From NCBI GenBank assembly GCA_963805065.1, contig CAWDSS010000010.1, positions 984,359-1,048,358 of the forward strand: a DNA stretch of 64,000 bases, written 5' to 3'. The notes beneath the pieces were generated by a model. It did not search any database, was not told the DNA's origin, and saw nothing but the letters and a program-made list of their open reading frames with translations. How positions within the stretch are numbered: position 1 is the first letter of the stretch; each line of letters begins with the position of its first letter. Below are positions 14,421 to 62,070 of the stretch, in pieces. The translations under genes were made by a program, and so were the position numbers. Origin of the DNA: Candidatus Omnitrophota bacterium. GTDB lineage: Bacteria; Omnitrophota; Gorgyraeia; Gygaellales; Profunditerraquicolaceae.

Positions 14421-14429
14421 AGCCGCCTC

Positions 14430-17162: not shown

Positions 17163-17330
17163 ATCGCTATTTCTGGCGAGTCGCCAGGATGATGAGAAGA
17201 TAACCTTCTCTCCCGGCATGAGCTCAATAAATTGAGCTCATGCCATTGCACTTCGCGATGCTTCGTGCAATGTCGCGATTTTGGCTCTGCCAAAATTCGC
17301 GAGCGGTTTCAATTAGTTAGTAAGAATTCT
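17152..17330 (+). ncRNA. Candidate retron msr-msd non-coding RNA
   Basis: 10-nt terminal inverted repeat: AGAATTCTTA at 17152-17161 pairs with TAAGAATTCT at 17321-17330 (a1/a2-like). A G follows a1 at 17162. Five internal hairpins, including a perfect 14-bp stem at 17215-17244. Lies immediately upstream of the RT on the same strand. Confidence 0.6.
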
Positions 17331-17349
17331 TTTGTCTTCCCTTCTTATA

Positions 17350-18369
17350 ATGAACAAAGGATTATTTTTACAAAATTTTAAAAAAGAAGCAAAATTCCTT
17401 AAAATAGATAATGGATATAAAGAAATTTGTTTGACCTATGCTAATAGGTTGCTCTCTAAAGATCTTCCGGTAATATATGATATAAAGCATTTATCTTTAC
17501 TGCTGAATATTCGAATATCTCATTTAACAAAGATGATTTACGGTAATAGTAAATTTTACAAAACCTTTTATATTAAGAAGCGAGGAAATAAATATAGAAA
17601 GATTGAAGCTCCATTGGGAAGCCTTAAAACGGTTCAACGTTGGATTCTAAGGAATATACTTGAGAAGATAAAAACCTCAGATTATTGCAAAGGTTTTAGG
17701 CCCGGTTTATCAATTTTGGATAATGCGAGGCCACATCTAAATAAAGACTATGTTGTAAATGTTGATATTCAAGATTTTTTTCCATCTATAAAATATAATA
17801 AGGTTTTTGCAGTATTTAGGAATCTCGGTTACACAAAAAAAGTTTCATATGTTTTGTCTAAGTTATGTACTTTAGAAAATAGATTACCTCAGGGAGCGCC
17901 AACAAGTCCGTATATCTCTAATATTATATCTAAAAGAATAGATAGTAGAATTGCTGGTATTTGCAAAAATTTTGGATTTGTTTTTACAAGATATGCAGAT
18001 GACATTACTATATCAGGTACTAAAAAAGTAATTTTTTTGATTAGTTTTATTGAGAAAATATTAGGAGAAAGCTCATTTTTATTAAATAGATCAAAAACAA
18101 GAATTATGAAGAAAGGAAAAAGACAAGAAATAACAGGAATAGTCGTGAATGAAAAACTTAATTGGTTGAGGCCGAATATAAGAAAATTAAGGCAAGAAAT
18201 TTATTATTGTAAAAAATATGGGGTAGAAGAACATTTGAAGAGAAAAGGAATTATTAAAGCTAATTTCAGAGAATTTATGTATGGTAAAGCTTACTATCTA
18301 AAAATGATTGATAAGCCAAAAGGAGAGAATTTTTTACGAGAGTTAGACACTATTAATTGGGCGTATTAA
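17350..18369 (+). CDS. Retron-type reverse transcriptase
   Basis: NARPH (NAxxH), VNVDIQDFFPSI, RLPQGAPTSPYISN, YADDITIS, NRSKT, ITGIVVN (VTG motif). About 340 aa with no maturase or endonuclease domains. ATG at 17350 preferred over the TTG at 17332. Confidence 0.85.
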   Translation: MNKGLFLQNFKKEAKFLKIDNGYKEICLTYANRLLSKDLPVIYDIKHLSLLLNIRISHLTKMIYGNSKFYKTFYIKKRGNKYRKIEAPLGSLKTVQRWILRNILEKIKTSDYCKGFRPGLSILDNARPHLNKDYVVNVDIQDFFPSIKYNKVFAVFRNLGYTKKVSYVLSKLCTLENRLPQGAPTSPYISNIISKRIDSRIAGICKNFGFVFTRYADDITISGTKKVIFLISFIEKILGESSFLLNRSKTRIMKKGKRQEITGIVVNEKLNWLRPNIRKLRQEIYYCKKYGVEEHLKRKGIIKANFREFMYGKAYYLKMIDKPKGENFLRELDTINWAY

Positions 18370-18383
18370 CTAATTAGAACATA

Positions 18384-18420
18384 AAAAGGCTATTGATCGG
18401 ATACGGTCAATAGCCTTTTT
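18384..18420 (+). terminator. Rho-independent terminator after the RT gene
   Basis: aaaaaggctattgatcgg-atac-ggtcaatagcc followed by ttttt. Confidence 0.7.
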
Positions 18421-18472
18421 CTACCTGTATACAGAGAGTCCTTCTGTCACGCCGTATTTCTGGGCGCCTTCA
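18421..18472 (+). repeat. Right copy of the ~50-bp direct repeat bracketing the SIR2/RT cassette
   Basis: ctacctgtatacagagagtccttctgtcacgccgtatttctgggcgccttca aligns with 15014-15061. Confidence 0.75.
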
Positions 18473-18644
18473 GCATAGATACCTTTCGCAAAATTACTTT
18501 ATTCAAAATTCAAATTAATCAAAAGAAACCGCTTTCCCAATACCCCTGTTTTAGCCTTGAACACCCCTTACCTATATGCCATACTTTTATTAATGTAAGG
18601 CTGATGAACCAATAGCCACACTAAACTAACAAAATACTAATAAA

Positions 18645-21600
18645 ATGAAAAGGTTTTTCTCTATTTTATTATGCTTTTTTCTTATCTTTGAGCAAAGCTG
18701 TTTTGCTCAAGTCCTACCCATGCAGGCAATACCTTCTTGGTCAGCGCTTCCCAGCTTACGTTACCTAAGCGTTAACTCTGCTAACCCTTACAACTACTTT
18801 AACTTCCTCCTGGACAGAGGAGACAAACCTTTTACTAAAGACAGCCTTAACTTAGAATCAAAAAAGCTTATCAATTATTTCTTTTTAGGGCTTACCCTAC
18901 CTAGTGAATCTCTCTGGGTAAACCTTCGGCCTGATGAGCCGGGAAAGATTACCTCGGATGAGCTGAGCTCGACTGACCTTGGCCGCATCCTGCTGGAAGA
19001 AGACCTGCGGCTTAAAAAGGATGGCGCCGCCTACCTTAATCCTAACAATCCCAAAGGCAAGGAATTCTGGGAGAAGCTTTATGCAGCTATCGGCAAGGAC
19101 AAGCTAAGAAGGACAGGGATTACCACCTCAAACCGCATCTGGATAGTGCCTGATGAGGCAGTGGTCATGGAAACCGAAGACGGGGCATTTGTAGCCTCTG
19201 CAAAGCTAAAGGTACTCCTGGAGAATGACTATTTGAAAGCCAACCCCAAGGATGCCACCCAGGCATTGACCGAGAAGCTGATGAAGGAAATAATTCTTCC
19301 CTGCCTGGCTAAAGATGTCAATACCTCTTCTACCTACGCACCAGTGCGCCAGATTTATTACTCTCTTATCCTGGCAGAGTGGTACAAAAGGAAGCACAAA
19401 ACCTCAAATGACGCCTATTCCTCATACATAAACAAAGGCTCAACCAAGGGCCTTGAATCAGAACTACCCTGGTCAAAACAAAAGATCTGGCAGGATTATT
19501 TAGTATCTTACCAAAAGGGAGAATACAACCTTAAGTCTGACCTTTTTGGCTTAAAGAGGATGTACTTTAGTGGAGGGATGGATTTTGTACAATTAGGCAG
19601 CAGTCCGATGATCAAGCTATCTTCTCTAGCAGAATTAACAAATCTAAAAGAAAGCTTACCAACAAATCCCGAAGCAAATAAAGAAAAATTCAACTTGTAT
19701 GTTATTACGAATCAAAATACAAAAAATCCTCTACAAATAATAGAAGGTATAAATAGCAAAGCGGTGGAAGACCATATGTTGCCTGTATTAAAGACAGGCA
19801 AGGGCATTATAGGTATTACCACTGAAGCAGCACAACTTATCTTACCTAAACGTGAAGAGGCGCTCCAGTCTGAGTTTGGTTCATCAGCCATCCAGCCTGA
19901 AAAAACGGGCGCCTCTTCAACGATCTTCGCTTCGCAGACGGAATTACTATCTAATGAACAATTAACTGATAGGATAGACCAGGCCATCAAGAGATTCCCT
20001 GCCATAAGATACACAAATTTAACGCCACGTCAAATCGTTGAATCACTATTAACTAACGACATGTTTTCCCCTGATCGTAAGAGAGCCGTTGAAGATACGC
20101 TTGAAAATATACTTGTTATTCCCACTATGCCCACGTCAGATTTAAGAGAAGAATTAGGGAAAATTCTTGAATTCGCAGATACTTATGCCGTTAATCCAGA
20201 AGCCCGTAGTTTTGTAGACAGTTTAGCGATTTTGAGTGCACGTGAACATGTTAAGGATATGAAAGATACTGATATAGCATCAAGGCCAGCATACAAATTT
20301 TTGGAAAACACCCCTCCTGGAGCAATAATCTTAGACCTTGCTAGCGGCATAAATATGGCAACCTTTATGCAGAATTTGAAAAAAGACGTCAGTTACATTT
20401 TGGTTGATAAATCGCCTTTTGTAAAAACGTATTTGCAGGAAGTAGCACGATTGTTTAACGTTAATAATGTAACAATATTGGATCAGGATGTTTTGCAATT
20501 AGCAATGCCTGGGCAGCATTTTGATGTTATTCGCGCAAAGAATGTCCCGCACTATGTGCCTGGTTTTGTTGAAAAATTACGGGAGATGAAAGAATGGGTT
20601 AAGATTGGTGGCCAGATTATAATTCAGAATGATCCCAACTGGGCACAAAGAATGCATGCTGCAGCAGACTATGGTAAATTTGCAGAAGAGCTTATTAATC
20701 AAGGCTGGAGTTTTAGTTTTAAATTAGGTCAGTTTGAAAGTTATGAATATAATGGACGCACAATGCATGATTCGGTTCTTGATAGCCTAATATTTACAAA
20801 GACAGAAGATCGTTCAAGACAATCTATCAAGACATCGCTAAAGGCTTGGGTTGATTATCTAAAGGCTAATGTTGAGGAATTACTAAGTAATATAAATCCG
20901 CAAATCTCAAGCATGACAATAAAACCCATATCTTTAGAACTGCCAAAACAGCCAGTTGTCATGATAAACGAAGATTCTCTGACAACAACCAAGCACTTGT
21001 TTGATAAGAGTAAGATTATCAATATAGATCCATCACTCTTTAGAGATCTCTATAGACCTCGATTAAACTATGCTGACTTATCCTATGCTGACATGGATCC
21101 AGAAGTATACGGAGAAGAAGAAGGAATTGCGATGCATAAAAATAGAGAAAGATTTATTTTTACTAGGTTGGGCGAGTTCCTAATCATTAATGAGAAAGGC
21201 ATAGCCAGAACCATGAAGGAAGAGGAAATCAATGATTTTCGTAAAAAAATAGAAGAACAACGAGAAAATCATACAAATAACTTAGTCCTTAAGGAACTAT
21301 ATAATAAATTTATTGATATGCAAAAAACAATAAAAAGAACCTCCGGCTCACCGTTGATAACTAAATCCGATGTGTATAATATAATGAATAATATAATTGC
21401 TACGGCAGAACAAAACCCGGGTGCACGTATTACATTTAATACTTACAGGTTTGGAGCAAATACTTTAACGCAGTGGCTAGCTCAAGCTGGATTTCAAAAT
21501 GTCAGTATATCTCCACAGCTTGCTAGTAAGCATTCATCAATTCTTACCTTGTTCTTTTTATCCATTCCGAATATGCATAAGGATAAGAGAGTATCCACCT

Positions 21601-24600
21601 TTTCATTGGAGAATGACACTTTGGTCTGGATAAAAGATGGCAATGACCTTTTTATCGTTACAGAACAAGAAGCAGTGGATGGGGGGGTGATTAGCAAAGT
21701 CTCCTCCTCGCCGCTTAAAACAGCTTTTGCAAGGCGATTAAAGGATCTTGGAATCGCGAGTCTGGGTATTTTAATGTGGGTAACCGCTGCAGGTGCTCAG
21801 GATAATACTTTAGTGCCATCCGCTCAACAGAATCAATACGTACTTAACACAAATTATAGCGATACTTTAAACGGCACTTATGCTAATGTCGATCTTGAAT
21901 TAGGAAAGCATCTAATTTTGACCGTGGGAGCTCTTAAGGGCGCAGAAGAATCCGGCCCTTATGGTCCTTATGCAGGTTTTACCTTTAATACTGTTGAGTC
22001 TAGCCAAGACTTCTTTATGAAAGGTGGTTTTGAGATATCCATGTTTAATTATCAGAACGAGATAGCACAGCAAAATAGCAGTAATTGGTTTGTGGGGAGC
22101 GCAAACTATGCTGTGGCTGAACTCTTCCCTCTGACGAAGACAGTTGATATTACTGTTGGCGGTGCGGCTAGCGTTTCTGGGTCCTATACTAATTCCGGAA
22201 ATGATATATCGGAAAACTGGAGATTCTTTAGCCCTCCGACTTTGGCAGGCAAAATTCTGTTAGGATGGAATATCTCTCCAGACAAAAGAGTCACACTCGG
22301 CCTAGATACAACTGCCTACAATGAATTTACGAATGTCCAGAGTTACAGCATGGCATTTTTTCCATATTCTAAGTTAAGACTAGGGTATTCTACAATATGT
22401 CTTCTGGGAGTTCCAACCAATTTTGGGGCAAGCTACGGAGAAGGGCCGGGTTACGGGCGAATTTTTTCAATTGATACTAAAGGGTCGCCTACACCAGGAA
22501 CCGACGTGGCAGTCGAATACCAGCAGGCAGACAAACCTACCTATGTTATTTTCCCTGAGGGCAGAAAAATAGGCCTAACTGTGGATAAACAGTTAACTAG
22601 CAGAGAAGGAGGGCCAAGGTTCTCATTGACGGCTTCAGTGGAGAAGCTTATTTATGAATGGGGCGGCCATTCTCAAACAAATAGCACAGTAGGTTTTAAG
22701 TTAATCATCCCGTTTCAGCCAACTCGTAACCTAGGCGCGGGTATGTCCGTTGAAAAAGAGGTCGGAACTCCTTTTGTTGCTAACAACTATAAAATCATTC
22801 CTTTTGAATCTCCAGCAGATTTTTCTTTTGATGAACTAAAGCAGGCTTTGGAGACAATGTCTCCTGATGAGTTTGTAAATAATTTTCTGCGTAATCGTAC
22901 TAAAGTTAAGAACTTGAATGATCTATTGCAATCAGTTGCGTATATTACAGATCAATTAGGCACATATAACTGGAGTGAAAAATCAGATCCGCTTTTTAAA
23001 GGTGTGAATATGCTTAATATTACTGACGCCCAGATGCTTAGTACTCTGGGGGAAAGCCTAAGAACTGGTGAACCAATACCAGCAGTAGTTTGTGCCGGCA
23101 TATTTTCAGCAGGATCAGACTGGATTAATGCTGCTAGGTTGCCAGGGGTTTTTGCTTTTCAAGCTTCCGTGGAAGCGGGGCATCCACAAGGCGGCCATAT
23201 CATTACAGTAGTGGTTACTCCCAAAACAATTTATTTGGTGGATTACTTCCAATACAAAATCATAGATACGGGGACTCGTAATTCTGCAGAGGCCCTCGCC
23301 TTGTATGAACGGATACAACAAAACGGCGATGCTGCTTTGACGCATGAGATTTTTCATGGAAGAAAATTCATCGGGTTCGCCGGTGGTCCATTCGATGACA
23401 ATTATGGTTCACGCGATGGCGAACTTCTTAGAAATGCTCTGACTATCGATGGGGGAAAATCGGCGGATAAGCTTTTGGAAGATGCGGTCAAGGCAGTTCA
23501 ACCTTCATTAACTGTGCCAGAACAGCCCAAAGCGACAGAGCCATCACCGAATATTAATCCTGCACCTATTCCCGAAGCACATATGCTAGCCAAAAGCGCC
23601 TCTTCGGCAATGAATAAAGATATAACTAACCGTATAAGCATTTTAAATGATCCTGATAGATACGGCAGAAAAAGAGGGAATTTATCTGAAACAGAAAGCA
23701 TGTATCAGGCTTTGCTGTCCAAATCCCTAGAAAGTGAAGGGTTTTCTTCTGGGCAAGCCAAAACTTTTTCTCTTGCCTTGATACGTTTTTATCAAGGTAC
23801 ATTAAACAATCTTGTCGAAGATGGATTTTTGTCTAGACAAGACAAAGAAGATCTTATTGAGCTGAAAGAATTCAATTTAAATAGATTCAGAACTAAAATG
23901 CAAGAAAATTACGAGGCCTACAAGAATTATACTGGCAAGGGAGGTAAGTTTGCGGAAAGTCAAATATCCTATCTTCTTTTTGCTAAGTTATTTAGTTTCC
24001 AAAGAGCCAAGGGATTAATCGATGAGGAGGGCCTGAGCAGAAACAATATAAGTATAATAGTTAGGTATGCCAATCCTGAAAAATGGTGGCAAGAGAAAAA
24101 GATTTTCCGCGATAGGCTCGTTAATGAGAAGAAATTAGAACTAGGCTATGCCACAAGAATTGTTTTGGAGCACCCCGAAGATCCTTGGGCATGGTGGGCA
24201 AGCGCTGAGGTCACCAGGGATAGATTGGTTGCAGTTGAACACTTAAATCTAACCCAAGCAAACTGGATTGTTGTTCAATATTCAAATCCAATGGAATGGT
24301 GGCAAAAGATAAAGACAATCCGTGATAGGCTAGTTGAAGGAACTGTCACGAAAACAAGCCTTTCTGGGGTCGATTTAATAAGAGACACAATTTTAAATCC
24401 AAACAATATTACAAAAGATAGTATTTGGGAAGAGGTTTCTTCAACAGAGGTGCGTTTAAAGCCAAATATTGACCTAGAACATATTGTCAGTGAAATTGCA
24501 AAGGGTGATTTTGATAAAGTTTGGCCTATTCTACAACAGGTTCTTAGAGAGGGAAAAATAAGCATAGAGGATGCCACTATGATTGTATTGCAGCACCCCA

Positions 24601-25514
24601 AAGATCCTTGGGCATGGTGGGAGAAAGTCAAGCCTGTACGTAAGAATCTGATTGAGAAAGAGCATTTAAGTCCATCAGATGCAACGCGGGTTATTATAAC
24701 ACATCCTCAAGATCCTATGAAATGGTGGATAACAAAAGCCAAACCTTTTGTCAATAAATTAATGGAGGATGGCTTGAAAGAATACGAATCAAAGCAAATG
24801 GTTTTACAACATTCTCGGGACCCGCTTAAGCGATGGGAAGAGGCTAAGGCCGTTCTGAAGGAACTAGTTGAACAAGAAGGATTAAGTAAATCTACCGCAA
24901 AAGAGATTATTAATCAACATTCCTATCCAAAAACATTGTGGTATATTGTGAAAAAAACCAGGGAAGAGCTTATTAACTTGAATCCGTCATTGCGTAAACG
25001 AGAGAAGGGCCTAGCGATTGAGTTTATAAAAAAGGATCCAAATAGATTTCAAGGAAAAGATTTTGGTATTACTGATGAACAGTTGGAAATTGTTTTGAAA
25101 CCGCTGAAAGAGTTTAAGAATAAAGAAAGCTCTGGTTCATCGCCGATAAATGACCTTTTGCCAACAGAAGAAAAACTTGGCATTGCTAAACCCGGCGGCA
25201 TCGACCTCTCCAAGATAGAACTCACGCTTAAAGATGAGAAATACATCTCAAGCCTTAGCCCTGCTGATGTAAAGGTGCTGCGTGCTGCCAAAGCCTTAAA
25301 AGACGGCTGGAACAGCTTATCGTTACTCTATGCGCATGAGGTAATGCTGATGCTAGAAGATAAGGTGGTATTAAGCATCAAGAACAAGCCAATGCTACAG
25401 GAAGTCCTTAACCAGCTTAACAGCAGAGAATGCTTAGACCCTCAAGGCCTCATCTTCTTACAAGCAATGCAATCACGCCTAGCTACCCCTGGATTAGCCG
25501 TAGTTAAACCCTAA
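18645..25514 (+). CDS. Giant secreted multidomain protein (2289 aa): signal peptide, SAM-methyltransferase-like segment, hydrophobic segment with beta-rich region, transglutaminase-like Cys-His-Asp core, C-terminal tandem repeats
   Basis: Uninterrupted 6.9-kb ORF. Signal MKRFFSILLCFFLIFEQSCFAQV. IILDLASG...ILVDKSP resembles MTase motifs I/II (~20290-20650). VVCAG...ARLPGV...GGHIITVV...YLVDY (~23070-23260). About 36-aa repeats at 24040-24990. Confidence 0.8.
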   Translation: MKRFFSILLCFFLIFEQSCFAQVLPMQAIPSWSALPSLRYLSVNSANPYNYFNFLLDRGDKPFTKDSLNLESKKLINYFFLGLTLPSESLWVNLRPDEPGKITSDELSSTDLGRILLEEDLRLKKDGAAYLNPNNPKGKEFWEKLYAAIGKDKLRRTGITTSNRIWIVPDEAVVMETEDGAFVASAKLKVLLENDYLKANPKDATQALTEKLMKEIILPCLAKDVNTSSTYAPVRQIYYSLILAEWYKRKHKTSNDAYSSYINKGSTKGLESELPWSKQKIWQDYLVSYQKGEYNLKSDLFGLKRMYFSGGMDFVQLGSSPMIKLSSLAELTNLKESLPTNPEANKEKFNLYVITNQNTKNPLQIIEGINSKAVEDHMLPVLKTGKGIIGITTEAAQLILPKREEALQSEFGSSAIQPEKTGASSTIFASQTELLSNEQLTDRIDQAIKRFPAIRYTNLTPRQIVESLLTNDMFSPDRKRAVEDTLENILVIPTMPTSDLREELGKILEFADTYAVNPEARSFVDSLAILSAREHVKDMKDTDIASRPAYKFLENTPPGAIILDLASGINMATFMQNLKKDVSYILVDKSPFVKTYLQEVARLFNVNNVTILDQDVLQLAMPGQHFDVIRAKNVPHYVPGFVEKLREMKEWVKIGGQIIIQNDPNWAQRMHAAADYGKFAEELINQGWSFSFKLGQFESYEYNGRTMHDSVLDSLIFTKTEDRSRQSIKTSLKAWVDYLKANVEELLSNINPQISSMTIKPISLELPKQPVVMINEDSLTTTKHLFDKSKIINIDPSLFRDLYRPRLNYADLSYADMDPEVYGEEEGIAMHKNRERFIFTRLGEFLIINEKGIARTMKEEEINDFRKKIEEQRENHTNNLVLKELYNKFIDMQKTIKRTSGSPLITKSDVYNIMNNIIATAEQNPGARITFNTYRFGANTLTQWLAQAGFQNVSISPQLASKHSSILTLFFLSIPNMHKDKRVSTFSLENDTLVWIKDGNDLFIVTEQEAVDGGVISKVSSSPLKTAFARRLKDLGIASLGILMWVTAAGAQDNTLVPSAQQNQYVLNTNYSDTLNGTYANVDLELGKHLILTVGALKGAEESGPYGPYAGFTFNTVESSQDFFMKGGFEISMFNYQNEIAQQNSSNWFVGSANYAVAELFPLTKTVDITVGGAASVSGSYTNSGNDISENWRFFSPPTLAGKILLGWNISPDKRVTLGLDTTAYNEFTNVQSYSMAFFPYSKLRLGYSTICLLGVPTNFGASYGEGPGYGRIFSIDTKGSPTPGTDVAVEYQQADKPTYVIFPEGRKIGLTVDKQLTSREGGPRFSLTASVEKLIYEWGGHSQTNSTVGFKLIIPFQPTRNLGAGMSVEKEVGTPFVANNYKIIPFESPADFSFDELKQALETMSPDEFVNNFLRNRTKVKNLNDLLQSVAYITDQLGTYNWSEKSDPLFKGVNMLNITDAQMLSTLGESLRTGEPIPAVVCAGIFSAGSDWINAARLPGVFAFQASVEAGHPQGGHIITVVVTPKTIYLVDYFQYKIIDTGTRNSAEALALYERIQQNGDAALTHEIFHGRKFIGFAGGPFDDNYGSRDGELLRNALTIDGGKSADKLLEDAVKAVQPSLTVPEQPKATEPSPNINPAPIPEAHMLAKSASSAMNKDITNRISILNDPDRYGRKRGNLSETESMYQALLSKSLESEGFSSGQAKTFSLALIRFYQGTLNNLVEDGFLSRQDKEDLIELKEFNLNRFRTKMQENYEAYKNYTGKGGKFAESQISYLLFAKLFSFQRAKGLIDEEGLSRNNISIIVRYANPEKWWQEKKIFRDRLVNEKKLELGYATRIVLEHPEDPWAWWASAEVTRDRLVAVEHLNLTQANWIVVQYSNPMEWWQKIKTIRDRLVEGTVTKTSLSGVDLIRDTILNPNNITKDSIWEEVSSTEVRLKPNIDLEHIVSEIAKGDFDKVWPILQQVLREGKISIEDATMIVLQHPKDPWAWWEKVKPVRKNLIEKEHLSPSDATRVIITHPQDPMKWWITKAKPFVNKLMEDGLKEYESKQMVLQHSRDPLKRWEEAKAVLKELVEQEGLSKSTAKEIINQHSYPKTLWYIVKKTREELINLNPSLRKREKGLAIEFIKKDPNRFQGKDFGITDEQLEIVLKPLKEFKNKESSGSSPINDLLPTEEKLGIAKPGGIDLSKIELTLKDEKYISSLSPADVKVLRAAKALKDGWNSLSLLYAHEVMLMLEDKVVLSIKNKPMLQEVLNQLNSRECLDPQGLIFLQAMQSRLATPGLAVVKP
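24040..24990 (+). repeat. At least 7 tandem ~36-aa protein repeats (consensus roughly a..IV.qHP.DPw.WW...k..Rd.Lv.e..Ls) inside the giant ORF
   Basis: Recurring YANPEKWWQEKKIFRDRLV, HPEDPWAWWASAEVTRDRLV, YSNPMEWWQKIKTIRDRLV, HPKDPWAWWEKVKPVRKNLI, HPQDPMKWWITKAKPFVNKLM, HSRDPLKRWEEAKAVLKELV, HSYPKTLWYIVKKTREELI. Confidence 0.8.
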
Positions 25515-30150: not shown

Positions 30151-30230
30151 TTTGCTAAAAGGCTTTATTTTTGCTATAATACTTTTCCTTGTTGAACAAA
30201 AGCCTGCCTGACGGCAGGCAGGGAGCTTCC

Positions 30231-31555: not shown

Positions 31556-34503
31556 ATGGTTTATAAAATTGAGGTCAAAGAAAAAGCCGGTATTTTTGAT
31601 GCTGTGGGAGAAGGCATCAAAAAGGACATACTGGACTTGGGGATAAATTCTGTCCGCGATGTCCGTTTCATTCAGATTTTTACCATTGAAGGAAACGTCT
31701 CGCAAGACCAGATAGAAAAAATCTGCCAGGAATTGCTTGCCGATAGAATTTCCCAGGAATATCAAATTGACGAGTCAGTGAGTCAGCGAGTCAACAAGTC
31801 AACGGAATTTCTCGTTGAAGTTGCCTATAACCCGGCAGTCACGGATCCTGTTGAAGAATCAACCTTAAAGGGTATTCGCGACTTAGGGATAGAAAGCGTA
31901 ACATCAGTCAAGACAGCCAGGAAATATCTTATCAAGGGTAAACTCACCGATACCCAGCTTAAAACAATTTCAGAAAAGCTGCTTTACAATAAGTTAATAC
32001 AACATGTTGTAAACCCGTTAGCTTTCAGCTTTCAGCTCTCAGCTCTCAGCGAACCAGATTATCAACTCAAATTAATTACAGTAAGCCTGATTAATGCATC
32101 GGATAGAGAATTGCAGAAAATCAGTAAGAATGGTCAGTTATTTTTGGATCTTACTGAAATGCGCCAGATACAGAAATACTTCCAGAGATTAAAACGTAAT
32201 CCCACGGACTGTGAATTGGAAACTATTGCCCAGACCTGGTCAGAGCATTGCTGGCATAAGACGTTTCGGGGAAAAATAAGATACTCTGAGAGGTTATCGG
32301 TTCTAGGTTCTAGGTTCTCGCAAAAACCCAGAACCCAGAATCCAAAACCCAAGTTAATTAATAATCTTCTCAAATCCACTATAATGAAAGTTACCAAAGA
32401 GCTGAATAAGCCCTGGTGCGTTTCGGTATTTAAGGATAATTCCGGCGTGATACGTTTTGACGATAAACATAATGTTTGTTTTAAAGTGGAAACCCATAAT
32501 CATCCTTCTGCATTGGAGCCATTTGGCGGAGCAAATACGGGAATTGGCGGCGTGATCAGGGATCCCCTGGGCACAGGTTTAGGGGCAAAGCCGATACTTA
32601 ATACCGATGTATTTTGTTTTGCGCCACCCGATTATCCGTTTAGTAAATTGCCTTCAGGCACACTGCATCCCAAACGCATCATGAAAGGCGTAGTTTCCGG
32701 CGTGCGTGATTACGGAAATAAAATGGGAATCCCTACTGTCAACGGCGCAATTCTTTTCCACGAAAGATTTATCGGAAATCCGCTGGTTTATTGCGGCACC
32801 GTCGGGATTATGCCCAAAGATAAATCTTTTAAACAGTCAAAGACAGGAGACCTTATTGTCGTAGTAGGCGGCAGGACCGGCAGAGATGGTATTCACGGCG
32901 CAACATTTTCATCGGGAGAATTAACCCATGAATCCGAAACAATCTCCAGCGGCGCAGTGCAGATAGGCAACCCCATTCAGGAAAAAAAGATGGTTGATAC
33001 CATATTACAGGCGCGCGATTTGAATTTATACAATGCTATCACGGATTGCGGAGCAGGCGGATTATCCAGCGCAGTGGGAGAAATGGGCGCTGATTTAGGC
33101 GCGCAAGTTTATTTAGAAAAAGTTCCCTTAAAATATTCGGGTTTATCATATACGGAAATCTGGATTTCCGAATCCCAGGAAAGAATGGTGCTTTCTGTGC
33201 CGAAAGACAAAATCAATTCCCTGATAGAAGTTTTTGAAAAAGAGAATGTTGAGGCTACGGTAATCGGCGAATTTACGGACACTAAAACGCTCAAGCTTTA
33301 TTATAAAGATAATCTGGTTTGCGACCTGGATATGCAATTTTTACACGAAGGCCTGCCCAAAGATAGAGAAAAAAGCGGAATTTATTCAATCCAGGCATAT
33401 AGAGCCAAAATTTGACTGCCCAAAAGACCTGACAAATTATGTTTTGAAATTGCTTTCCAGATACGACATCTGCTCTAAGGAATGGGTAATCAGGCAATAT
33501 GACCATGAGGTGCAGGGAGGCTCGGTATTAAAGCCGTTAGTCGGTATTGTAAATGACGGGCCATCTGATGCCAGCGTGGTCAGGCCTGTTTTAGGGTCCA
33601 GAGCGCGGGATAATCATATCTTGCGGCATAAATTTCAGATTCGGGTTTATTGATCCTTATTGGATGGCGGCATCCTGTATTGATGAAGCATTGCGGCAGA
33701 TAATCGCAGTTGGCGGTTCATTGGAAGAGGTAGCGATTCTGGATAATTTCTGCTGGGGAAATCCCGATAAGCCCGACAGGTTAGGCGGTTTAGTAAGGGC
33801 AGCCTATGGTTGTTATGATATTGCTAAGGCATTTGGCGTGCCGTTTATTTCCGGCAAGGATAGCCTTTATAATGAATATACAGTTAATCATAAGTCTATA
33901 TCAATTCCCGGCACACTCTTAATTTCAGCTATTGCAGTTATGCCAGATGTATTTAAAGCAGTTTCTATGTACGCAAAAAACGCCGGAGACCTCTTATATA
34001 TAGTGGGTAAGACTTATAATGAATTGGGAGGCTCGCATTATTACGATTTACAGGGCAGTTTAGGTAATAATGTGCCTCGCGTTAAACCACAATACGCAAA
34101 AAATACCTTTGCTGCATTAAGCCAGGCTTCATCTTGTGGCCTTATCAAAGCCATGCATGATTGTTCAGAAGGTGGGATTGCAGTTAGCCTGGCAGAGATG
34201 GCATTTGCCGGTGGGTTGGGTGCGGAAATATTTTTATCAGAAGTGCCATATCAGGAGCTCTCAGCTAAAAGGAATGATTCTGTATTATTCTCGGAGTCAA
34301 ATTCCAGGTTTATTGTGGAAGTAGAAAAGAAAAATCAAAAACAGTTTGAAAAAATACTCAACTTAAAAAAAGTATCTTTTGGTTTAATGGGCTGCCTTAC
34401 TAAAGGCAATGAATTTAAAGCCTATGGACTAGACGGAAAAATCTGTATTAATAGCCGCATAGCCGCATTGAAAGAGGCGTGGCTAAAACCATTGAGGTGG
34501 TAG
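31556..34503 (+). pseudogene. purL: PurS-PurS-PurL fusion (FGAM synthase II) interrupted by two apparent +1 frameshifts (near 33369-33375 and 33599-33607). Either a pseudogene or assembly indels.
   Basis: Three consecutive ORF fragments (31556-33415, 33444-33653, 33664-34503) in frames 2, 0 and 1 read as one continuous PurL (WSEHCWHK, ETHNHPSALEPFGGANTGIGGVIRD, SKEWVIRQYDHEVQG, DPYWMAASCIDEALRQI). Confidence 0.8.
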
Positions 34504-34504
34504 A

Positions 34505-35158
34505 ATGAGAGATCTAAAGCCTAAGGAAGATTTTACGCAGGAAGATACCTGGCGTATATTTCGCATCATGTCGGAATTTGTGGAAGGGTTTGAAGTGCTT
34601 TCCCGGGTCGGTAAAGCAGTTTCCATATTCGGTTCTAGCCGTACCAAGCCGGGAACAAAATATTATAAATTAGCCGAAGAGATTGCCTATCTTTTAGCCA
34701 AGGAGGGCTATGTTATTATTACCGGAAGCGGACCGGGCCTTATGGAAGCGGCTAACAAGGGAGCTAAATTTGCCAATGGCAAGTCCGTAGGTTTAAATAT
34801 ACAACTTCCTTTGCAGCAAGAGCCCAATAAATACGTGGATTTGCTTTTGGATTTTCGCTATTTCTTTGTGAGAAAAGTCATGTTCGTAAAATACGCCAAG
34901 GCATTTGTGATTCTCCCCGGAGGTTACGGTACGCTGGATGAGTTTACTGAGGCCATAAACCTTATTCAGACACAAAGAATCCCGGAATTCCCGGTAGTTT
35001 TGTTTAACAGCGAATATTGGAAAGGCATGCTGGATTGGCTAAAAGACAAGGTTTTAAAAAACGGTTGCATCAGTAAACAGGACTTAAATATATTTAGCGT
35101 AGTGGATACGCCTAGAGAAGTGGTAAAAGTAATAAAGAAATTTTATGAAAAAGCCTAA
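34505..35158 (+). CDS. LOG-family (TIGR00730) nucleotide 5'-monophosphate nucleosidase-like protein
   Basis: GSGPGLMEAAN and PGGYGTLDE motifs. Confidence 0.8.
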   Translation: MRDLKPKEDFTQEDTWRIFRIMSEFVEGFEVLSRVGKAVSIFGSSRTKPGTKYYKLAEEIAYLLAKEGYVIITGSGPGLMEAANKGAKFANGKSVGLNIQLPLQQEPNKYVDLLLDFRYFFVRKVMFVKYAKAFVILPGGYGTLDEFTEAINLIQTQRIPEFPVVLFNSEYWKGMLDWLKDKVLKNGCISKQDLNIFSVVDTPREVVKVIKKFYEKA

Positions 35159-35939
35159 AGTATGCGTATTAAGGACAGCAGGCACTAATTGCGATAAGGA
35201 GACCGTATTTGCCTTTCAAAAGTCAGGCGCTGATACAGAGCTTGTGCATATTAACAGCCTGATTAATGCCGAAAAAAATCTTTCCAGTTATCAGATTTTA
35301 GCTATTCCCGGCGGATTTTCTTACGGAGATGATATAGCCGCAGGAAAAATTTTTGCCAATGAATTAAAGAATAAGCTTGCAGATGACCTCAAGAAATTTA
35401 TTGCAGAGGGAAAGCTTATTATCGGCATTTGCAACGGCTTCCAAATTCTGGTTAAAAGCGGATTATTGCCGGGGAATCCTCAATTAAAACAGGATACAAG
35501 CCTTATTATAAACGATTCAGGCAAATTCGAGGACCGCTGGGTGTATTTAAGGCAAAAGGAAAAAGGCAAAAGGCAAAACTGTGTATGGACAAGAAATATT
35601 CCGGAAATAATTTATCTTCCGGTGGCGCACGGAGAAGGAAAATTTATTACACAGGATAAAGCGCTGCTGGGAAAATTAAAGAGAAATCATCAGATTGTTT
35701 TTCAGTATTGTGACGAAAAAGGAAAACTAGCAGGTTACCCATATAATCCTAATGGCTCAACAGATAACATCGCAGGCATCTGTGATGAAACCGGAAGGAT
35801 CCTGGGGCTTATGCCGCATCCGGAGAGGCATATTGATATTCGTCAGCATCCCCGGTGGGCGTCATCAAAAAATAAAAAACAAGGAGACGGATTCGCGATT
35901 TTTAAAAACGGGGTGGAATATGCAAAAAATATTTTGTGA
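35145..35939 (+). CDS. purQ: FGAM synthase I, glutaminase subunit
   Basis: Class I amidotransferase motifs: GICNGFQ (nucleophile Cys) and MPHPER. Confidence 0.9.
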   Translation: MKKPKVCVLRTAGTNCDKETVFAFQKSGADTELVHINSLINAEKNLSSYQILAIPGGFSYGDDIAAGKIFANELKNKLADDLKKFIAEGKLIIGICNGFQILVKSGLLPGNPQLKQDTSLIINDSGKFEDRWVYLRQKEKGKRQNCVWTRNIPEIIYLPVAHGEGKFITQDKALLGKLKRNHQIVFQYCDEKGKLAGYPYNPNGSTDNIAGICDETGRILGLMPHPERHIDIRQHPRWASSKNKKQGDGFAIFKNGVEYAKNIL

Positions 35940-37362
35940 CGATAAACCCAAAGAATATTGCGGTTTATTCGGAATTATAAATAACAGGCACGCCAGTTGG
36001 TTAACGTATCTGGGCTTGTATGCGCTGCAGCACCGTGGCCAGGAAGCCTGTGGGATAGTAGCCAATAAAAACGGCATTTTGAATATACATAAAGGCATGG
36101 GGTTAGTGAGCGATGTGTTTGACGAGCAGGTCTTGGGCAAATTAAAAGGTGATATCGCCGTCGGCCATGTGCGTTATTCTACTACCGGTTCAAGCGTTTT
36201 AAAAAACTCCCAGCCCCTTCTGATTGATTATGCTAAAGGCTCAATATGCATTGCGCATAACGGCAATCTGGTTAATTCATTGGAGCTTAGGCAATCCCTG
36301 GAAAAAAGCGGCTCAATATTCCAGACCACTACTGATTCCGAAATTATCATACACTTAATGGCACACGCAAAATCGCAAAACTTAAAACAAAGCCTGATTT
36401 ATGCGCTTAAGAGGGTTAAAGGGGCTTATTCTTTGATTATGATGGATAACCGCACGCTTATCGGCACAAGAGACCCCTTCGGGTTTAGGCCTCTTTCTTT
36501 GGGAAAAGTAGGCAATTCTTTTTGCCTGGCATCAGAAACTTGCGCCTTTGATTTAATCGGAGCAAAATTCATCCGTGATATTGAGCCGGGAGAAATAGTT
36601 TTCATAACTAAATATGGCATAAAATCAATTAAGCCAAAAGTTTTAAAGGTTAACGCAAGGTTGGCATTCTGTACCTTTGAGCACGTTTATTTTGCGCGGC
36701 CTGATTCTGTGGTGTTTGGAGAAACTGTGCATACTGTAAGGCGCAGGCTGGGAGAACAATTAGCAAAGGAATATCCTATAAATGCAGATTTTGTGGTGCC
36801 TGTGCCTGATTCGGGATTTTCCGCAGCATTGGGTTATTCCCAGGAGTCCGGCATTCCTTTAGAAATGGGCATTATTCGTAACCATTACGTAGGAAGGACC
36901 TTTATTCAGCCGGCCCAGGATGCGCGCGACCTGGGCGTGAGAGTTAAATTTAATTTGCTGAAGGATGTTTTAAAAGGCAAGCGCATAGTTATTGTGGATG
37001 ATTCCATAGTCCGCGGGACAACTTCAAAAATACGCGTGCGCAATTTACGCAAAGCCGGTGTAAAAGAAGTGCATTTACGGATTTCTTGCCCCGCGCACAG
37101 GTTTCCCTGTTTTTACGGGATTGATTTCCATAAAGCATCGGAATTAATCGCCAATAGATATGAATCGCTGGATAAAATAAGAGAATACCTGGAAGTCGAT
37201 AGTTTAGGTTATTTAAGTTTAGAAGGGATGCTTTCCTGCTTGAAACATTCAGAAGATCATTATTGTACTGCTTGCTGGACAGGCAAATACCCGGTTATGG
37301 CAGAAAAAGAACACGGAAAGTTTTCCCTTGAAATGCGTTGCTGTGGACAGGGAGACATATAA
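35920..37362 (+). CDS. purF: Amidophosphoribosyltransferase
   Basis: Short propeptide then CGLFGI Ntn cysteine, PRTase motif VIVDDSIVRGTT, C-terminal Fe-S cysteines. Start set at the ATG at 35920 because the upstream ORF-track extension overlaps purQ. Confidence 0.9.
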   Translation: MQKIFCDDKPKEYCGLFGIINNRHASWLTYLGLYALQHRGQEACGIVANKNGILNIHKGMGLVSDVFDEQVLGKLKGDIAVGHVRYSTTGSSVLKNSQPLLIDYAKGSICIAHNGNLVNSLELRQSLEKSGSIFQTTTDSEIIIHLMAHAKSQNLKQSLIYALKRVKGAYSLIMMDNRTLIGTRDPFGFRPLSLGKVGNSFCLASETCAFDLIGAKFIRDIEPGEIVFITKYGIKSIKPKVLKVNARLAFCTFEHVYFARPDSVVFGETVHTVRRRLGEQLAKEYPINADFVVPVPDSGFSAALGYSQESGIPLEMGIIRNHYVGRTFIQPAQDARDLGVRVKFNLLKDVLKGKRIVIVDDSIVRGTTSKIRVRNLRKAGVKEVHLRISCPAHRFPCFYGIDFHKASELIANRYESLDKIREYLEVDSLGYLSLEGMLSCLKHSEDHYCTACWTGKYPVMAEKEHGKFSLEMRCCGQGDI

Positions 37363-38378
37363 TGAATAAGTTAACCTATAAAAAAGCAGGGGTAGATATT
37401 TGTTCTGCAAATATCTTTAAGGGTAAGATAAAAACCTTAGTGAGAAAATCTTTCAGGCAGGAGGTATTGAAGGACATTGGCGGCTTCGGAAGTTTCTTTC
37501 GCATGCCAAAAGATAAATACAAGAATCCGGTTTTGGTTTCCTCTTCTGACGGAGTGGGCACAAAATTAAAGATAGCTAACCTGGTAAATAAGCACGATAC
37601 TGTGGGAATTGATGCAGTAGCCATGAATGTGAATGATATTCTTTGCACGGGCGCAGAGCCGTTATTCTTTCTGGACTACATTGCTTACAGCAAAGTAAAT
37701 CCCGAAGTATTATTTGAAGTGGTTAAAGGCTTGAATTCAGGTTGTATTGAGTCAGGGTGTTCTTTAATCGGCGGTGAAACAGCGCAAATGCCCGGCATGT
37801 ACAAGTTTGGAGAATACGATTTAGCGGGTTTTTGCGTGGGGGTAGTTGAGAGAAAGGCCATTATTGACGGCTCTAAGATTAAAGCGGGAGACCTGGTTAT
37901 AGGGCTTGAATCCAGCGGAATACATTCTAATGGTTATTCGTTGGTGAGAAAAATATTTTCTAATAATGAATTAAGGCGCATGAGCAAAGAATTACTTAAG
38001 CCTACAAGAATCTATGTCAAACCCGTACTATCTTTATTACGACCATCGACCATCGACCATCGACCATCGATTACCGGTATTGCTCATATTACAGGCGGGG
38101 CCTTTTACGATAAGATAAAACGTATATTACCAAATGATGTAAATGTCTGGATAAACAAAAATTCCTGGCCTGTGCCAAAAATATTTAAACTAATTCAGAA
38201 CAAAGGCAATATACAGGACAAAGAAATGTATCATACCTTTAATATGGGAATAGGTATGGTTTTGGTAGTTGAGCCTAGGATATCAAAAAATATAATAAAT
38301 AAACTTGCTCAATTTAAATTGAAGTCCTGGATTATTGGAGAAATATTGGCAGGCAAAAGGCAGGTAGAGATAGTTTAA
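37362..38378 (+). CDS. purM: Phosphoribosylformylglycinamidine cyclo-ligase (AIR synthase)
   Basis: LTYKKAGVDI, DGVGTK, DYIA, GGETAQMPG, AHITGGAF. Confidence 0.9.
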   Translation: MNKLTYKKAGVDICSANIFKGKIKTLVRKSFRQEVLKDIGGFGSFFRMPKDKYKNPVLVSSSDGVGTKLKIANLVNKHDTVGIDAVAMNVNDILCTGAEPLFFLDYIAYSKVNPEVLFEVVKGLNSGCIESGCSLIGGETAQMPGMYKFGEYDLAGFCVGVVERKAIIDGSKIKAGDLVIGLESSGIHSNGYSLVRKIFSNNELRRMSKELLKPTRIYVKPVLSLLRPSTIDHRPSITGIAHITGGAFYDKIKRILPNDVNVWINKNSWPVPKIFKLIQNKGNIQDKEMYHTFNMGIGMVLVVEPRISKNIINKLAQFKLKSWIIGEILAGKRQVEIV

Positions 38379-40000: not shown

Positions 40001-41275
40001 ATGAGAATATTAGTTATTGGATCTGGTGGCAGGGAGCATGCGCTGGTGTGGAAAATCGCGCAGTCTAAATTAGCGGATAAGATTTTTTGTGCTTCCGGAA
40101 ATGCCGGAATAGCGCAAATTGCCGAATGCATTGATATAAGAGCCGACGACATTCCGGGATTAATAGATTTTGCCAGAAGAGAAAAAATAGATTTGACTGT
40201 GGTCGGGCCAGAAGTCCCCTTAGCTTTAGGCATTGTAGATGAATTCAGCAATTATAAATTAAGGATATTCGGCCCGAATAAAAAAGCAGCGCAATTGGAG
40301 GGAAGTAAGGTATTTGCCAAGCAGTTAATGGCAAAATACAAAGTCCCTACCGCTGATTTTAAAGTTTTTGAGAGTGCAGATGAGTCCAAGAAGTATATAG
40401 AAAAAATCGGCGCTCCTTGTGTAGTAAAAGCCGATGGATTGGCGCAAGGTAAGGGCGTAGTAGTAGCTAAAACCATTGATGAGGCGAAACAGGCAGTAGA
40501 GTCCATGATGCAGCATAAGATATTCGGCGACGCAGGCAACAAGGTAATAATAGAGGAATGCCTTCAGGGCCAGGAAGCCTCAATACTGGTGATTACGGAT
40601 TCTAAAGAAGTTATTGCTTTAGCCTCAGCCCAGGATCATAAACGGGTGTTTGATAATGATCAGGGTCCTAATACTGGCGGGATGGGTGCATATTCCCCTG
40701 CCTCCGTAGTAACTAAAGAATTATTCAAAGAAATTTTAGACAAAATAGTATACCGCACAATAGATGGTTTAGTAAAAGAGGGCATAGATTACCGCGGAGT
40801 TTTGTATGCGGGAGTAATGCTTACTAAAGATGGCCCGAAGACTTTAGAATTTAATGTGCGTTTTGGCGATCCTGAAACACAGACGATTCTGCCCAGATTA
40901 AAATCGGATTTACTGGAAATAATGCTGGCGACAGCTGAACAAAAATTAAACCGTGTAAGAAATCTTGAATGGGATAACCGCGCTTGTGTCTGCGTGGTTT
41001 GCGCTGCAGGGGGCTATCCGGGAAATTATACAAAAGGAGAAGACATCTTTGGCTTAGATAAAGTAGACAAGATGAAAGATATTGTAGTTTTTCATGCAGG
41101 CACTAAGTTGCAGAATAATAAAGTTACCACTAATGGCGGGCGCGTCCTGGGAGTAACCGGTTTAGGCAACACCATAAAAGAGGCAATTGATAATACCTAT
41201 TTAGCATTAAACGAGATAAGCTTTAAGGGAATGCATTATAGGAAAGATATAGGTAGCAGGGCATTGCAAAGTTAA
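40001..41275 (+). CDS. purD: Phosphoribosylamine-glycine ligase
   Basis: MRILVIGSGGREHAL, ATP-grasp motifs, GPNTGGMGAY, RFGDPE. Confidence 0.9.
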   Translation: MRILVIGSGGREHALVWKIAQSKLADKIFCASGNAGIAQIAECIDIRADDIPGLIDFARREKIDLTVVGPEVPLALGIVDEFSNYKLRIFGPNKKAAQLEGSKVFAKQLMAKYKVPTADFKVFESADESKKYIEKIGAPCVVKADGLAQGKGVVVAKTIDEAKQAVESMMQHKIFGDAGNKVIIEECLQGQEASILVITDSKEVIALASAQDHKRVFDNDQGPNTGGMGAYSPASVVTKELFKEILDKIVYRTIDGLVKEGIDYRGVLYAGVMLTKDGPKTLEFNVRFGDPETQTILPRLKSDLLEIMLATAEQKLNRVRNLEWDNRACVCVVCAAGGYPGNYTKGEDIFGLDKVDKMKDIVVFHAGTKLQNNKVTTNGGRVLGVTGLGNTIKEAIDNTYLALNEISFKGMHYRKDIGSRALQS

Positions 41276-41367
41276 AAGTAAAAAGCCAAAAGGAAAAAGT
41301 GTAAGTAAAAAGTAAAAACTTTTAAATTTTAACTTAAACTTTTACCTTTTTGCTTTTAACTTTTGAC
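41271..41367. repeat. Imperfect hairpin built from heptamer units gNNaaaa (6-7 per arm). The right arm (41333-41364) is the exact reverse complement of 45099-45130.
   Basis: Read directly: gttaaaa gtaaaaa gccaaaa ggaaaaa gtgtaa gtaaaaa gtaaaaa / cttttaaatttt / reverse-complement arm. Confidence 0.8.
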
Positions 41368-41383
41368 TTTAATGGGAGGTATT

Positions 41384-44637: not shown

Positions 44638-45129
44638 ATGAAGAAAACTACACAACAAAGGCCTAGCTGGGATGAATATTTTTTAGAAGTAGCGCATTTA
44701 GTGGCTAAAAGGTCGACCTGCCTACGGCGTAGCGTGGGTGCAGTCTTAGTCAAGGATAAAAGAATCCTGGCTACGGGTTACAATGGCGCTCCATCAGGGC
44801 TTAAGCATTGTGTTGATATTGGTTGCCTGCGTCAAAAGCTTAATATCCCATCAGGCGAGCGCCACGAATTATGCAGGGCTTTACACGCAGAGCAGAATGC
44901 GCTTATCCAGGCTTCGCTTTACGGTATAAGTGTCAAGGACAGCATTCTTTATGCCACTAATCAGCCCTGTGTTATTTGCGCTAAGATGTTAATTAATGCC
45001 GGGATAAAGGAAATTGTTATAGCTTCAGGATATCCGGATAAGTTGGCGATGGACTTTTTGAAGGAAGCTAAGATTAGAATAAGAAACACAGAAAAGTTAA
45101 AAGTTAAAAGCAAAAAGGTAAAAGTTTAA
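44638..45129 (+). CDS. dCMP deaminase (ComEB family). The C-terminal 12 aa are encoded by a heptamer-repeat tract.
   Basis: HAEQNA and PCVICAK zinc motifs. The tail [12 protein letters not shown] is encoded by 45091-45130. Confidence 0.85.
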
Positions 45130-62066: not shown

Positions 62067-62070
62067 ATTT

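Follow-up and report, generated by a model that had tools for sequence, protein, structure and literature searches.

Four-copy heptamer and octamer repeat tracts lying in frame within purine biosynthesis genes of Candidatus Omnitrophota

Short tandem repeats with a unit of seven nucleotides have been described in several groups of bacteria. Heptanucleotide tandem repeats have been reported inside the RNase P RNA gene of cyanobacteria (Vioque 1997). Heptamer repeats are also known in Nostoc and Calothrix and, as GGGAATC repeats, in Xanthomonas, and the heptamer period has tentatively been linked to the stretch of DNA that is held by the polymerase (PMC4692102). A 2007 survey, as far as it is cited in PMC4692102, reported an excess of heptameric simple repeats in bacterial genomes. 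In the current study, we analyzed a 64,000-nucleotide stretch (the window) of the genome of a Candidatus Omnitrophota bacterium (assembly GCA_963805065.1, contig CAWDSS010000010.1, positions 984,359 to 1,048,358 of the forward strand), in which tandem tracts of heptamers or octamers lie within and between the genes of purine biosynthesis (pur). An earlier, sequence-only reading of this DNA had noticed several of the tracts and had held that no described class of element has such a design, which, given the repeats already on record in cyanobacteria and in bacteria at large, was overstated. On balance, we consider it fairly probable that the tracts are old coding microsatellites, similar to the STRR (short tandemly repeated repetitive) sequences of cyanobacteria, that have been homogenized by slippage or template switching and quantized to four copies by the reading frame.

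Like cyanobacterial STRR sequences, the tracts are short arrays of tandem 7-nt units, they may belong to several unrelated unit families per genome, and they include inverted pairs. They also resemble STRR sequences in being tolerated inside a functional gene, which in the cyanobacterial case is the RNase P RNA gene (Vioque 1997). However, STRR sequences belong to heterocyst-forming cyanobacteria and are described as mainly intergenic and often longer, whereas the hosts here are Omnitrophota, together with Atribacterota, one Elusimicrobia bin, and phage contigs, and many of the Omnitrophota tracts are four-copy arrays in frame in protein genes, at positions conserved across a phylum-level clade. 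With bacterial heptameric repeats in general, the tracts share the preference for 7 nt, the inverted pairs, and a length and sequence that vary between close relatives at conserved positions. Those repeats, in contrast, are intergenic, and the ones from Xanthomonas and Nostoc are G-rich and able to form quadruplexes, while the units of Omnitrophota are translated, vary widely in sequence, and in many cases are rich in A and C on the coding strand. No mention of such tracts was found in the Omnitrophota papers searched or in the full-text literature searched.

Tandem Repeats Finder (TRF), applied to the window, returned the following tracts.

31771 to 31802 (31771 to 31801 according to TRF), forward strand: octamer tract CGAGTCAG, about 3.9 to 4 copies, in frame in the PurS-PurS-PurL fusion (residues 71 to 84), in the linker after the first PurS domain (Pfam PurS, residues 4 to 71)
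32020 to 32050, forward strand: heptamer tract, two copies of AGCTTTC followed by 2.4 of AGCTCTC (4.4 copies), in frame (residues 153 to 168), behind the second PurS-like domain and ahead of the FGAR-AT linker domain (FGAR-AT_linker, residues 186 to 235)
32291 to 32351, forward strand: inverted pair of period-7 tracts, four copies of AGGTTCT (arm 32291 to 32318) and then 3.9 of AACCCAG (arm 32325 to 32351), in frame in PurL (residues 245 to 268), between the FGAR-AT linker and AIRS domains
35549 to 35578, forward strand: heptamer tract AAGGCAA, 4.3 copies, in frame in PurQ (residues 136 to 147), inside the GATase_5 domain
38040 to 38070, forward strand: perfect heptamer tract CGACCAT, 4.4 copies, in frame in PurM
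41265 to 41370, forward strand: noncoding inverted pair of degenerate heptamer tracts, AAAGTAA (7.4 copies) and AACTTTT (7.9 copies)
45092 to 45126, forward strand: heptamer tract AAAAGTT, five copies, at the extreme C-terminal end of the dCMP deaminase gene (Pfam)
62070 to 62099, forward strand: noncoding heptamer tract TGTGTAA, 4.3 copies, between an XerC/D-type recombinase gene and a Kdo transferase gene (Pfam)

All of the coding tracts are in frame and leave their reading frames intact. The three sites in purS-purS-purL fall between Pfam domains (after PurS, before the FGAR-AT linker, and at the linker/AIRS border), and the tracts of PurQ and PurM fall inside Pfam domains; in PurM, the encoded peptide is RPSTIDHRPS, directly before ITGIAHITGG. 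The noncoding pair at 41265 to 41370 occupies 106 nt between the purD stop and the purE start and makes up a long periodic hairpin, and the unit at 45092 to 45126 is the reverse complement of the one at 41317 to 41370. TRF recovered every tract that the sequence-only reading had listed, including the intergenic one at 62070 to 62099, and the peptides quoted there match the open reading frames (ORFs). Its coordinates stand in all cases but one, a tract given as 32029 to 32059 that lies about 9 nt too far to the right and actually spans 32020 to 32050. Its list was incomplete, lacking three tracts, namely, the two arms of the 41265 to 41370 pair and the tract at 45092 to 45126.

The excess of such tracts over chance was assessed for periods 4 to 14 against 100 dinucleotide shuffles, with a threshold of at least three copies and a score of at least 36. 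The window contains eight period-7 tracts and one period-8 tract, compared to 0.01 to 0.03 per period per window in the shuffles, which bears out the suspected enrichment over composition; at the other periods from 4 to 14, there were zero tracts. Head-to-tail copies of a short unit are thus present far above chance, as in any microsatellite. Across the Omnitrophota loci described below, period 7 is dominant and period 8 comes second, and the frame-neutral periods 6 and 9 are nearly absent. Given that selection acting in genes would favor a step of 6 or 9, this argues cleanly for the 7- to 8-nt step being a property of the mutation process rather than of selection, in agreement with the general excess of heptamer repeats reported for bacteria. 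We give next to no credence to the idea that the pattern is due to chance or to faulty assembly. The window assembly does have likely indel errors in purL, but tracts are several hundred times more frequent than in shuffles, each is short enough to fit within one sequencing read, and the same architecture recurs at equivalent sites in over 100 assemblies made independently by many projects.

For comparison, we fetched loci around purM, 50 of them from Omnitrophota genome assemblies and 80 from metagenomes. The nearest relatives of the window's PurM are all from Candidatus Omnitrophota assemblies and are at most 78 to 79% identical to it. At all five coding sites, most Omnitrophota orthologues carry a four-copy heptamer or octamer tract at the identical alignment position, usually with another unit. 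The site at 31771 has other tracts at the equal position in orthologues, the site at 32020 has the AGCTYTC unit of the window in locus L010, the site at 32291 has related AACCCAG, AACCTAA, or AACTCCG tracts, and the PurQ site has other four-copy tracts, giving way to a shorter loop in distant relatives. Short loops are found at the tract sites in distant relatives generally (Veillonella, Atribacterota, and cyanobacteria) as well as in some Omnitrophota, and the two cyanobacterial loci in the set (L061 and L069) have no tract at the PurM site. Since the five positions bear tracts in most Omnitrophota orthologues, the sites appear to be old, with units turning over in place, and they presumably date to the common ancestor of a large Omnitrophota clade. 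In other genomes, tracts are also present in PurD. The tracts had been proposed to be lineage-specific insertions, and they do add residues relative to the outgroups and to solved PurM structures, in inter-domain linkers or in a helix-to-strand loop; they are not private, however, as the orthologues bear tracts too.

The PurM site illustrates this most fully. Among 116 distinct orthologue cores, those of 30 or 36 nt are tract-free, those of 42 to 48 nt hold four heptamers (the mode, 48 nt, comprises 44 sequences), those of 51 to 54 nt hold four octamers, and those of 66 to 69 nt hold a four-copy tract plus a 21-nt palindrome (discussed below). The protein alignment has ten hypervariable columns here, and the rest of the enzyme is 75% identical. 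Mapping of the insert onto structures, as had been proposed, showed that the solved PurM structures 2BTU and 1CLI have 6 residues fewer at precisely the tract position, and a structural model of PurM predicts the tract to be a coil between a helix and a strand. Because of its low confidence (mean predicted local distance difference test score, 62), the model was used only for secondary structure and for alignment to the solved PurMs.

Outside the Omnitrophota, four Atribacterota loci (L052 to L055) contain heptamer or octamer tracts of about 4.2 to 4.9 copies in intergenic positions, e.g., just after purF, and PurM of an Elusimicrobia bin (L058) has a CGCTATA tract at the loop position that is used in Omnitrophota.

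Copy number depends on whether a tract is translated. Across 1.41 Mb of sequence from Omnitrophota, 4.x copies are present in 91 of 120 coding tracts and five or more in only 4 of the 120, whereas 9 of 26 noncoding tracts have five or more (Fisher p = 2e-5). With a more sensitive detector, coding tracts numbered 23 at 2.x, 30 at 3.x, 76 at 4.x, and 3 at 5.x copies, and noncoding tracts numbered 8, 8, 8, and 4 in the same classes, plus 1 at six or more (for the 4.x class, coding versus noncoding, Fisher p = 0.004); the full noncoding range is 2 to 9 copies. An out-of-frame allele at the PurM tract was found in 0 of 131 assemblies, and there was no 7-copy allele among the 116 distinct cores. Six PurM orthologues that fell outside the search pattern were considered as possible off alleles and rejected, being motif variants (ANITGG) that are all in frame. 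Each 7- or 8-nt unit displaces the frame by a single base, so that the in-frame states are 1, 4, and 7 copies, with four being the smallest that is a repeat. An alternative explanation, in which four copies is an intrinsic block size, was rejected because noncoding and phage tracts spread over 2 to 6 copies without a sharp mode, and for the same reason we retained the reading frame as the filter. The four-copy restriction of coding tracts fits slippage filtered in this way. The proposal that the frame is kept by selection on insert length is therefore upheld: coding tracts are fixed at 4.x copies, and noncoding tracts are not.

The units themselves appear to evolve in concert. In the 48-nt PurM class, unit agreement is 92% within a tract versus 49% between orthologues compared in the same phase, as expected of concerted evolution. 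Positions 1 (C) and 7 (A) of the unit are mostly conserved, and the boundaries are fixed (TTA, then CG...CG, then ATA AAA GG). The more similar the flanks, the more similar the units tend to be, although the trend is weak (Mantel test; the observed value is reached in 16 of 2000 permutations). Between relatives with 88% identical flanks, CGCGGTA has been exchanged for CGCAATA in all four copies, and in another comparison (flanks, 93% identical) all four copies are the heptamer GAACACT on one side and the related octamer ACGAACTC on the other. Loci L013 and L026, which are 86% identical, share their PurM tract, but their PurS and PurL tracts are entirely different; the tract sites are the gap and low-identity hot spots of the alignment, and at one PurL site AGCTYTC (four copies) stands opposite AAAATTC (4.7 copies). 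These two loci come from one bin, metagenome-assembled genome (MAG) JBDRLC01, which thus has two pur-operon copies on separate contigs, as does MAG JADHWR01 (L042 and L046); such pairs are either co-binned strains or paralogous operons.

Taken together, these observations suggest a mechanism in which a mutational process with an intrinsic 7- to 8-nt step, either replication slippage or template switching, would make and reshuffle copies. Such a process would maintain the likeness of the copies within any one tract, even as the unit drifts from lineage to lineage, and would sometimes copy a tract between sites. Each unit gained or lost would shift the frame by one base, and the enzyme would be intact only at 1, 4, 7, and so on copies, so that four may be the sole copy number that preserves the frame and yet leaves enough repetition for slippage to go on. 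The encoded peptide would be a by-product, presenting all three frames of the unit in turn and tolerated in its loop, and the permissive places would be inter-domain linkers and surface loops of the parts of formylglycinamidine ribonucleotide (FGAM) synthase (PurS, PurL, and PurQ), of PurM, and, elsewhere, of PurD. Both slippage as the mechanism and the neutrality of the tract peptides are inferred.

Several findings weigh against this account. Slippage gives no reason for the 7- to 8-nt step, nor does it explain the concentration of tracts in pur genes (see below) except as a historical cluster. A copy-number check between strains, which the sequence-only reading had proposed, gave a divided result. 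The purM loci L015 and L147, which are 99.8% identical, differ by exactly one unit (7 nt) in a noncoding tract just upstream of the purM ribosome-binding site, their coding octamer tract being identical, which speaks in favor of slippage filtered by the frame. No coding tract, however, was seen to differ in copy number between close strains; turnover in coding tracts is therefore inferred from divergent comparisons only. The switch from 7 to 8 nt in all four copies would need either out-of-frame intermediates or a one-step rebuild, and plain stepwise slippage does not yield it. Furthermore, units recur at distant sites of one genome, on either strand. With about 20 kb per genome in view, exact sharing of units between sites more than 100 nt apart is 7.8% within a genome and 0.67% between genomes (p = 9e-9), and the shared units are inverted as often as direct. 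Examples include purQ and purM of L014 (inverted), four sites in L021, and three in L153. In the window, the only distant pair to share a unit is 41317 to 41370 with 45092 to 45126. The idea that each unit is specific to its locus thus holds for the window's coding tracts but not for other genomes, in which units are reused at distant sites on either strand. A further case is L127, in which an identical 57-nt composite, encoding LSAIRYPCLAGRQALSAIK and consisting of CTATCCG repeats, the palindrome, CGCTATC repeats, and then TTAAA, is present at 602 to 660 and at 4689 to 4745, in a MiaB-like gene and in purM, in matching frame. Its presence in unrelated genes indicates copying between sites and not only slippage in place. 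The recurrence of units and the position of the palindrome at tract centers (see below) likewise point to such copying, which we regard as a real contribution of unquantified extent.

One possibility that would accommodate these findings, though we consider it doubtful as a general explanation, is that the tracts are tiny mobile cassettes. According to this idea, a machinery indifferent to the unit inserts or copies a preformed four-unit block of about 30 nt, with or without the palindrome, into new sites or over existing tracts and in either orientation, and slippage is later noise; the cassettes would correspond, in Omnitrophota, to what the dispersed STRR and small-dispersed-repeat families are in Nostocales. 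The 12-fold-higher sharing of exact units within genomes than between them, in both orientations, is what such a machinery predicts, as is the composite of L127. The AGCTYTC unit, which turns up at different sites in the window, L010, and L013, may also be accounted for in this way, as may the presence of a tract in one and not the other of L026 and L041, a difference of 21 nt between flanks that are 92% identical. So may the identical 20-nt palindrome, found in several Omnitrophota and in high-G+C phage contigs and repeatedly in the third unit of a tract. On the other hand, most tracts of the same genome have unrelated units, with 85% of within-genome pairs differing at two or more positions, and the boundaries and unit phase at PurM are kept across orthologues despite the different units, a pattern that resembles change in situ. 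Compared with tract-free alleles, the net length gained is not constant (+12, +15, +18, and +21 nt) and so does not correspond to a fixed block, noncoding copy numbers are spread, and neither a target-site duplication nor an associated enzyme was identified. We therefore continue to prefer slippage or template switching under the constraint of the reading frame, supplemented by copying between sites.

Could the tracts instead be switches? Phase-variable contingency loci, as found in Haemophilus, Neisseria, and Helicobacter, have repeats of 1 to 7 nt, and a unit that is not a multiple of three inside a reading frame, as seen here, is their classic design. In host-dependent nanobacteria using the purines of a partner, one-unit slips might turn purine synthesis off and on and so spare the cell the cost of the de novo pathway, and a host-dependent lifestyle has been proposed for Omnitrophota (PMC10066038). 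Noncoding tracts directly before the purM ribosome-binding site, varying by one unit, would suit such a role. So would the distribution of the tracts, given that pur genes hold 6 of the 7 coding tract sites in the window in 15.6% of its ORF length (p = 9e-5) and, over the window and the 50 Omnitrophota loci (51 sequences), 46 of 65 tracts in 32% of the sequence. Outside the window, however, that enrichment is biased; the loci had been centered on purM, and sites that are orthologous cannot be counted as independent, so that the pur-gene excess is only suggestive. By syntenic families, 4 of 7 pur families have tracts versus 1 of 8 others, a difference that by a rough estimate is not significant. 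Contingency loci, moreover, have many copies, are found mainly in surface or restriction-modification genes, and occur as on and off alleles in different strains, whereas the Omnitrophota tracts have four copies, lie in housekeeping enzymes, and show no off allele in the 131 assemblies. Nearly all loci have intact tract-bearing frames of purS-L, purQ, and purD, an array of only four copies is small for rapid switching, and five separate switches in one pathway would be redundant. Switching is thus an improbable explanation, and mutation filtered by the frame is the better one.

Elhai and colleagues are said to have described, in 2008, small palindromic dispersed repeats nested in the heptamer repeats of cyanobacteria. 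A palindrome also accompanies the tracts studied here, and it is present in the window at two places.

62728 to 62768, forward strand: two tandem copies of a GC-rich palindrome of 21 nt (CCTGCCTGCCGGCAGGCAGG plus 1 nt), within the Kdo transferase gene and in its frame
30203 to 30222, forward strand: one copy with 1 mismatch, just upstream of the likely purB start

The doublet folds with an energy of -39.7 kcal/mol. In other Omnitrophota loci, the palindrome is placed inside the third of the four units of a tract, in purM (L012/L143, L120, and L127), in purQ (L035), and in MiaB, and its insertion adds exactly 21 nt; in a test of periodicity across the junctions, only 0.4% of random positions scored at the level of the palindrome in tracts. 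The exact 20-mer is also present in 35 stretches of IMG/VR contigs (L162 to L196), where it is often flanked by heptamer tracts, with period 7 accounting for 30 of 45 tandem repeats. The palindrome-bearing phage contigs that were scanned encode terminase and portal protein, and the G+C content of the IMG/VR stretches is 59% overall and 54 to 67% in tract-carrying contigs, compared to 40% for the window. Cultured plasmids and phages gave only chance-level matches to the palindrome, and no description of it was found in the literature searched.

Three of these stretches deserve mention in their own right. On a phage-like contig (L186, 2239 to 2330), the palindrome forms the long variable arm of a tRNA-Met gene, as called by ARAGORN, and in L193 it interrupts an apparent tRNA D-loop, at which ARAGORN called no tRNA. 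L195 has a many-copy tandem array of a 21-nt variant, CATGCCTACCGGCAGGCAGGC, at 3916 to 4125, which shows that tandem amplification of the palindrome can occur, as also seen in the two copies of the window.

The closest described relatives of the palindrome are repetitive extragenic palindromic (REP) sequences, the REP doublets forming hairpins (REPINs), and small dispersed repeats (SDRs), the last two of which have been grouped together as short interspersed palindromes (PMC3116915). It resembles them in being a very short, GC-rich hairpin with identical dispersed copies, tandem doublets, and variable presence at orthologous sites, and so it has the features by which REPs and SDRs are recognized. 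It differs from them in lying in frame in proteins, in the variable arm of a tRNA, and at the centers of heptamer tracts and in being common to low-G+C Omnitrophota and high-G+C phage contigs. No transposase of the Y1/RAYT (REP-associated tyrosine transposase) type was seen among the proteins scanned, which came from the window and from flanks of up to 10 kb on each side. One attractive, albeit speculative and in our estimation rather unlikely, possibility is that the tracts and the palindrome are one enzyme-driven system of tiny mobile DNA that is common to Omnitrophota, other uncultured phyla, and their phages. Such a system would write tracts of about four units regardless of unit sequence and would place the palindrome at tract centers; it would be able to enter proteins, tRNAs, and intergenic DNA wherever some 7 to 10 residues or a hairpin can be tolerated, and the pur operon would be its preferred or ancestral landing zone.

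Because inverted tracts can fold, a role at the level of RNA or DNA in the pur operon was also considered, for example, periodic hairpins acting in mRNA stability, in processing, or in translation pauses at domain borders. The inverted pair in purL folds as RNA at -22.6 kcal/mol (z = -4.3), with 6-bp helices split by 1x1 mismatches, and the purD-purE pair folds at -36.9 kcal/mol (z = -6.05), likewise with 6-bp helices and single mismatches. The arms of the latter are still complementary in spite of the divergence of units inside each of them, L021, L022, and L013 have further inverted pairs between their pur genes, and three of the coding sites are at domain borders. Single tracts, in contrast, have no structure beyond that of shuffles (PurM, z = -0.9; the 62070 tract, z = +1.2), and the units are unrelated between sites, which makes a common binding partner implausible. 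A search of the region from 27 to 47 kb at Rfam gathering thresholds matched no family, and many orthologues are tract-free without visible compensation. We therefore regard a function of this kind as very improbable.

Rickettsia palindromic elements (RPEs) are palindromes of about 100 to 150 nt with sequence similarity across the whole family. The tracts had been likened to them, and the comparison is apt insofar as both are repeats of a noncoding type that lie in frame in conserved genes, in surface regions where they are tolerated. It fails on size and on the palindromic design, as single tracts are 28 to 33 nt long, nonpalindromic, and unfolded and have no common sequence.

Where a repeat has a unit that is not divisible by three, the expectation is that essential genes are purged of it or that it is used as an on/off switch. 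The Omnitrophota tracts have been retained, in frame and at set positions in housekeeping enzymes, throughout a whole clade of a little-studied phylum, their sequence being repeatedly renewed, and so they offer a natural system in which the reading frame quantizes microsatellite copy number to 1, 4, 7, and so on. They also connect the heptamer repeats of cyanobacteria with elements of a similar kind in phages and unrelated phyla, alongside a conserved 21-nt palindrome seated at tract centers; should a single machinery lie behind tracts and palindrome alike, comparative genomics could find it. On a practical note, the tracts produce hypervariable loops of 10 residues, which are a potential source of error when Omnitrophota genomes are aligned, their genes called, or their strains typed.

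As for the setting of the tracts, the gene order from 30.2 to 45.7 kb is purB, the purS-purS-purL fusion, a LOG-family gene, purQ, purF, purM, a band-7 gene, purD, and purE, followed by tsaC, rpiB, glyA, the dCMP deaminase gene, and nrdR. The LOG-family (lysine decarboxylase-like) gene, at 34505 to 35158, keeps its place between purL and purQ in many Omnitrophota loci. purL is spread over three reading frames by two +1 shifts, at 33366 to 33372 (an A-run) and at 33598 to 33599 (GGGTCC), neither of which is at a tract. A strain contig that is 99.6% identical to the window (L081), and which covers no tract, lacks the second shift. The shifts are probably indel errors of the assembly, or possibly signs of a decaying gene.

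Upstream of the pur genes, a mobile- or defense-like island at 12795 to 25511 includes a serine recombinase (12795 to 14429, minus strand), a SIR2-like protein (15317 to 16786), a reverse transcriptase (17317 to 18366), and an ORF of 2294 residues (18630 to 25511) with internal repeats at 24066 to 24621. The reverse transcriptase lies 14 kb upstream of the tracts, and we considered whether these might be the targets of a diversity-generating retroelement; this was rejected, as no pair of template and variable repeats was found and the tract changes are not adenine specific. Near the start of the window, an array of a 99-nt (33-residue) repeat spans 569 to 1187, inside an ORF at 426 to 1289, with 5.4 copies of about 73% identity; from the repeat length, it may be of the ankyrin type.

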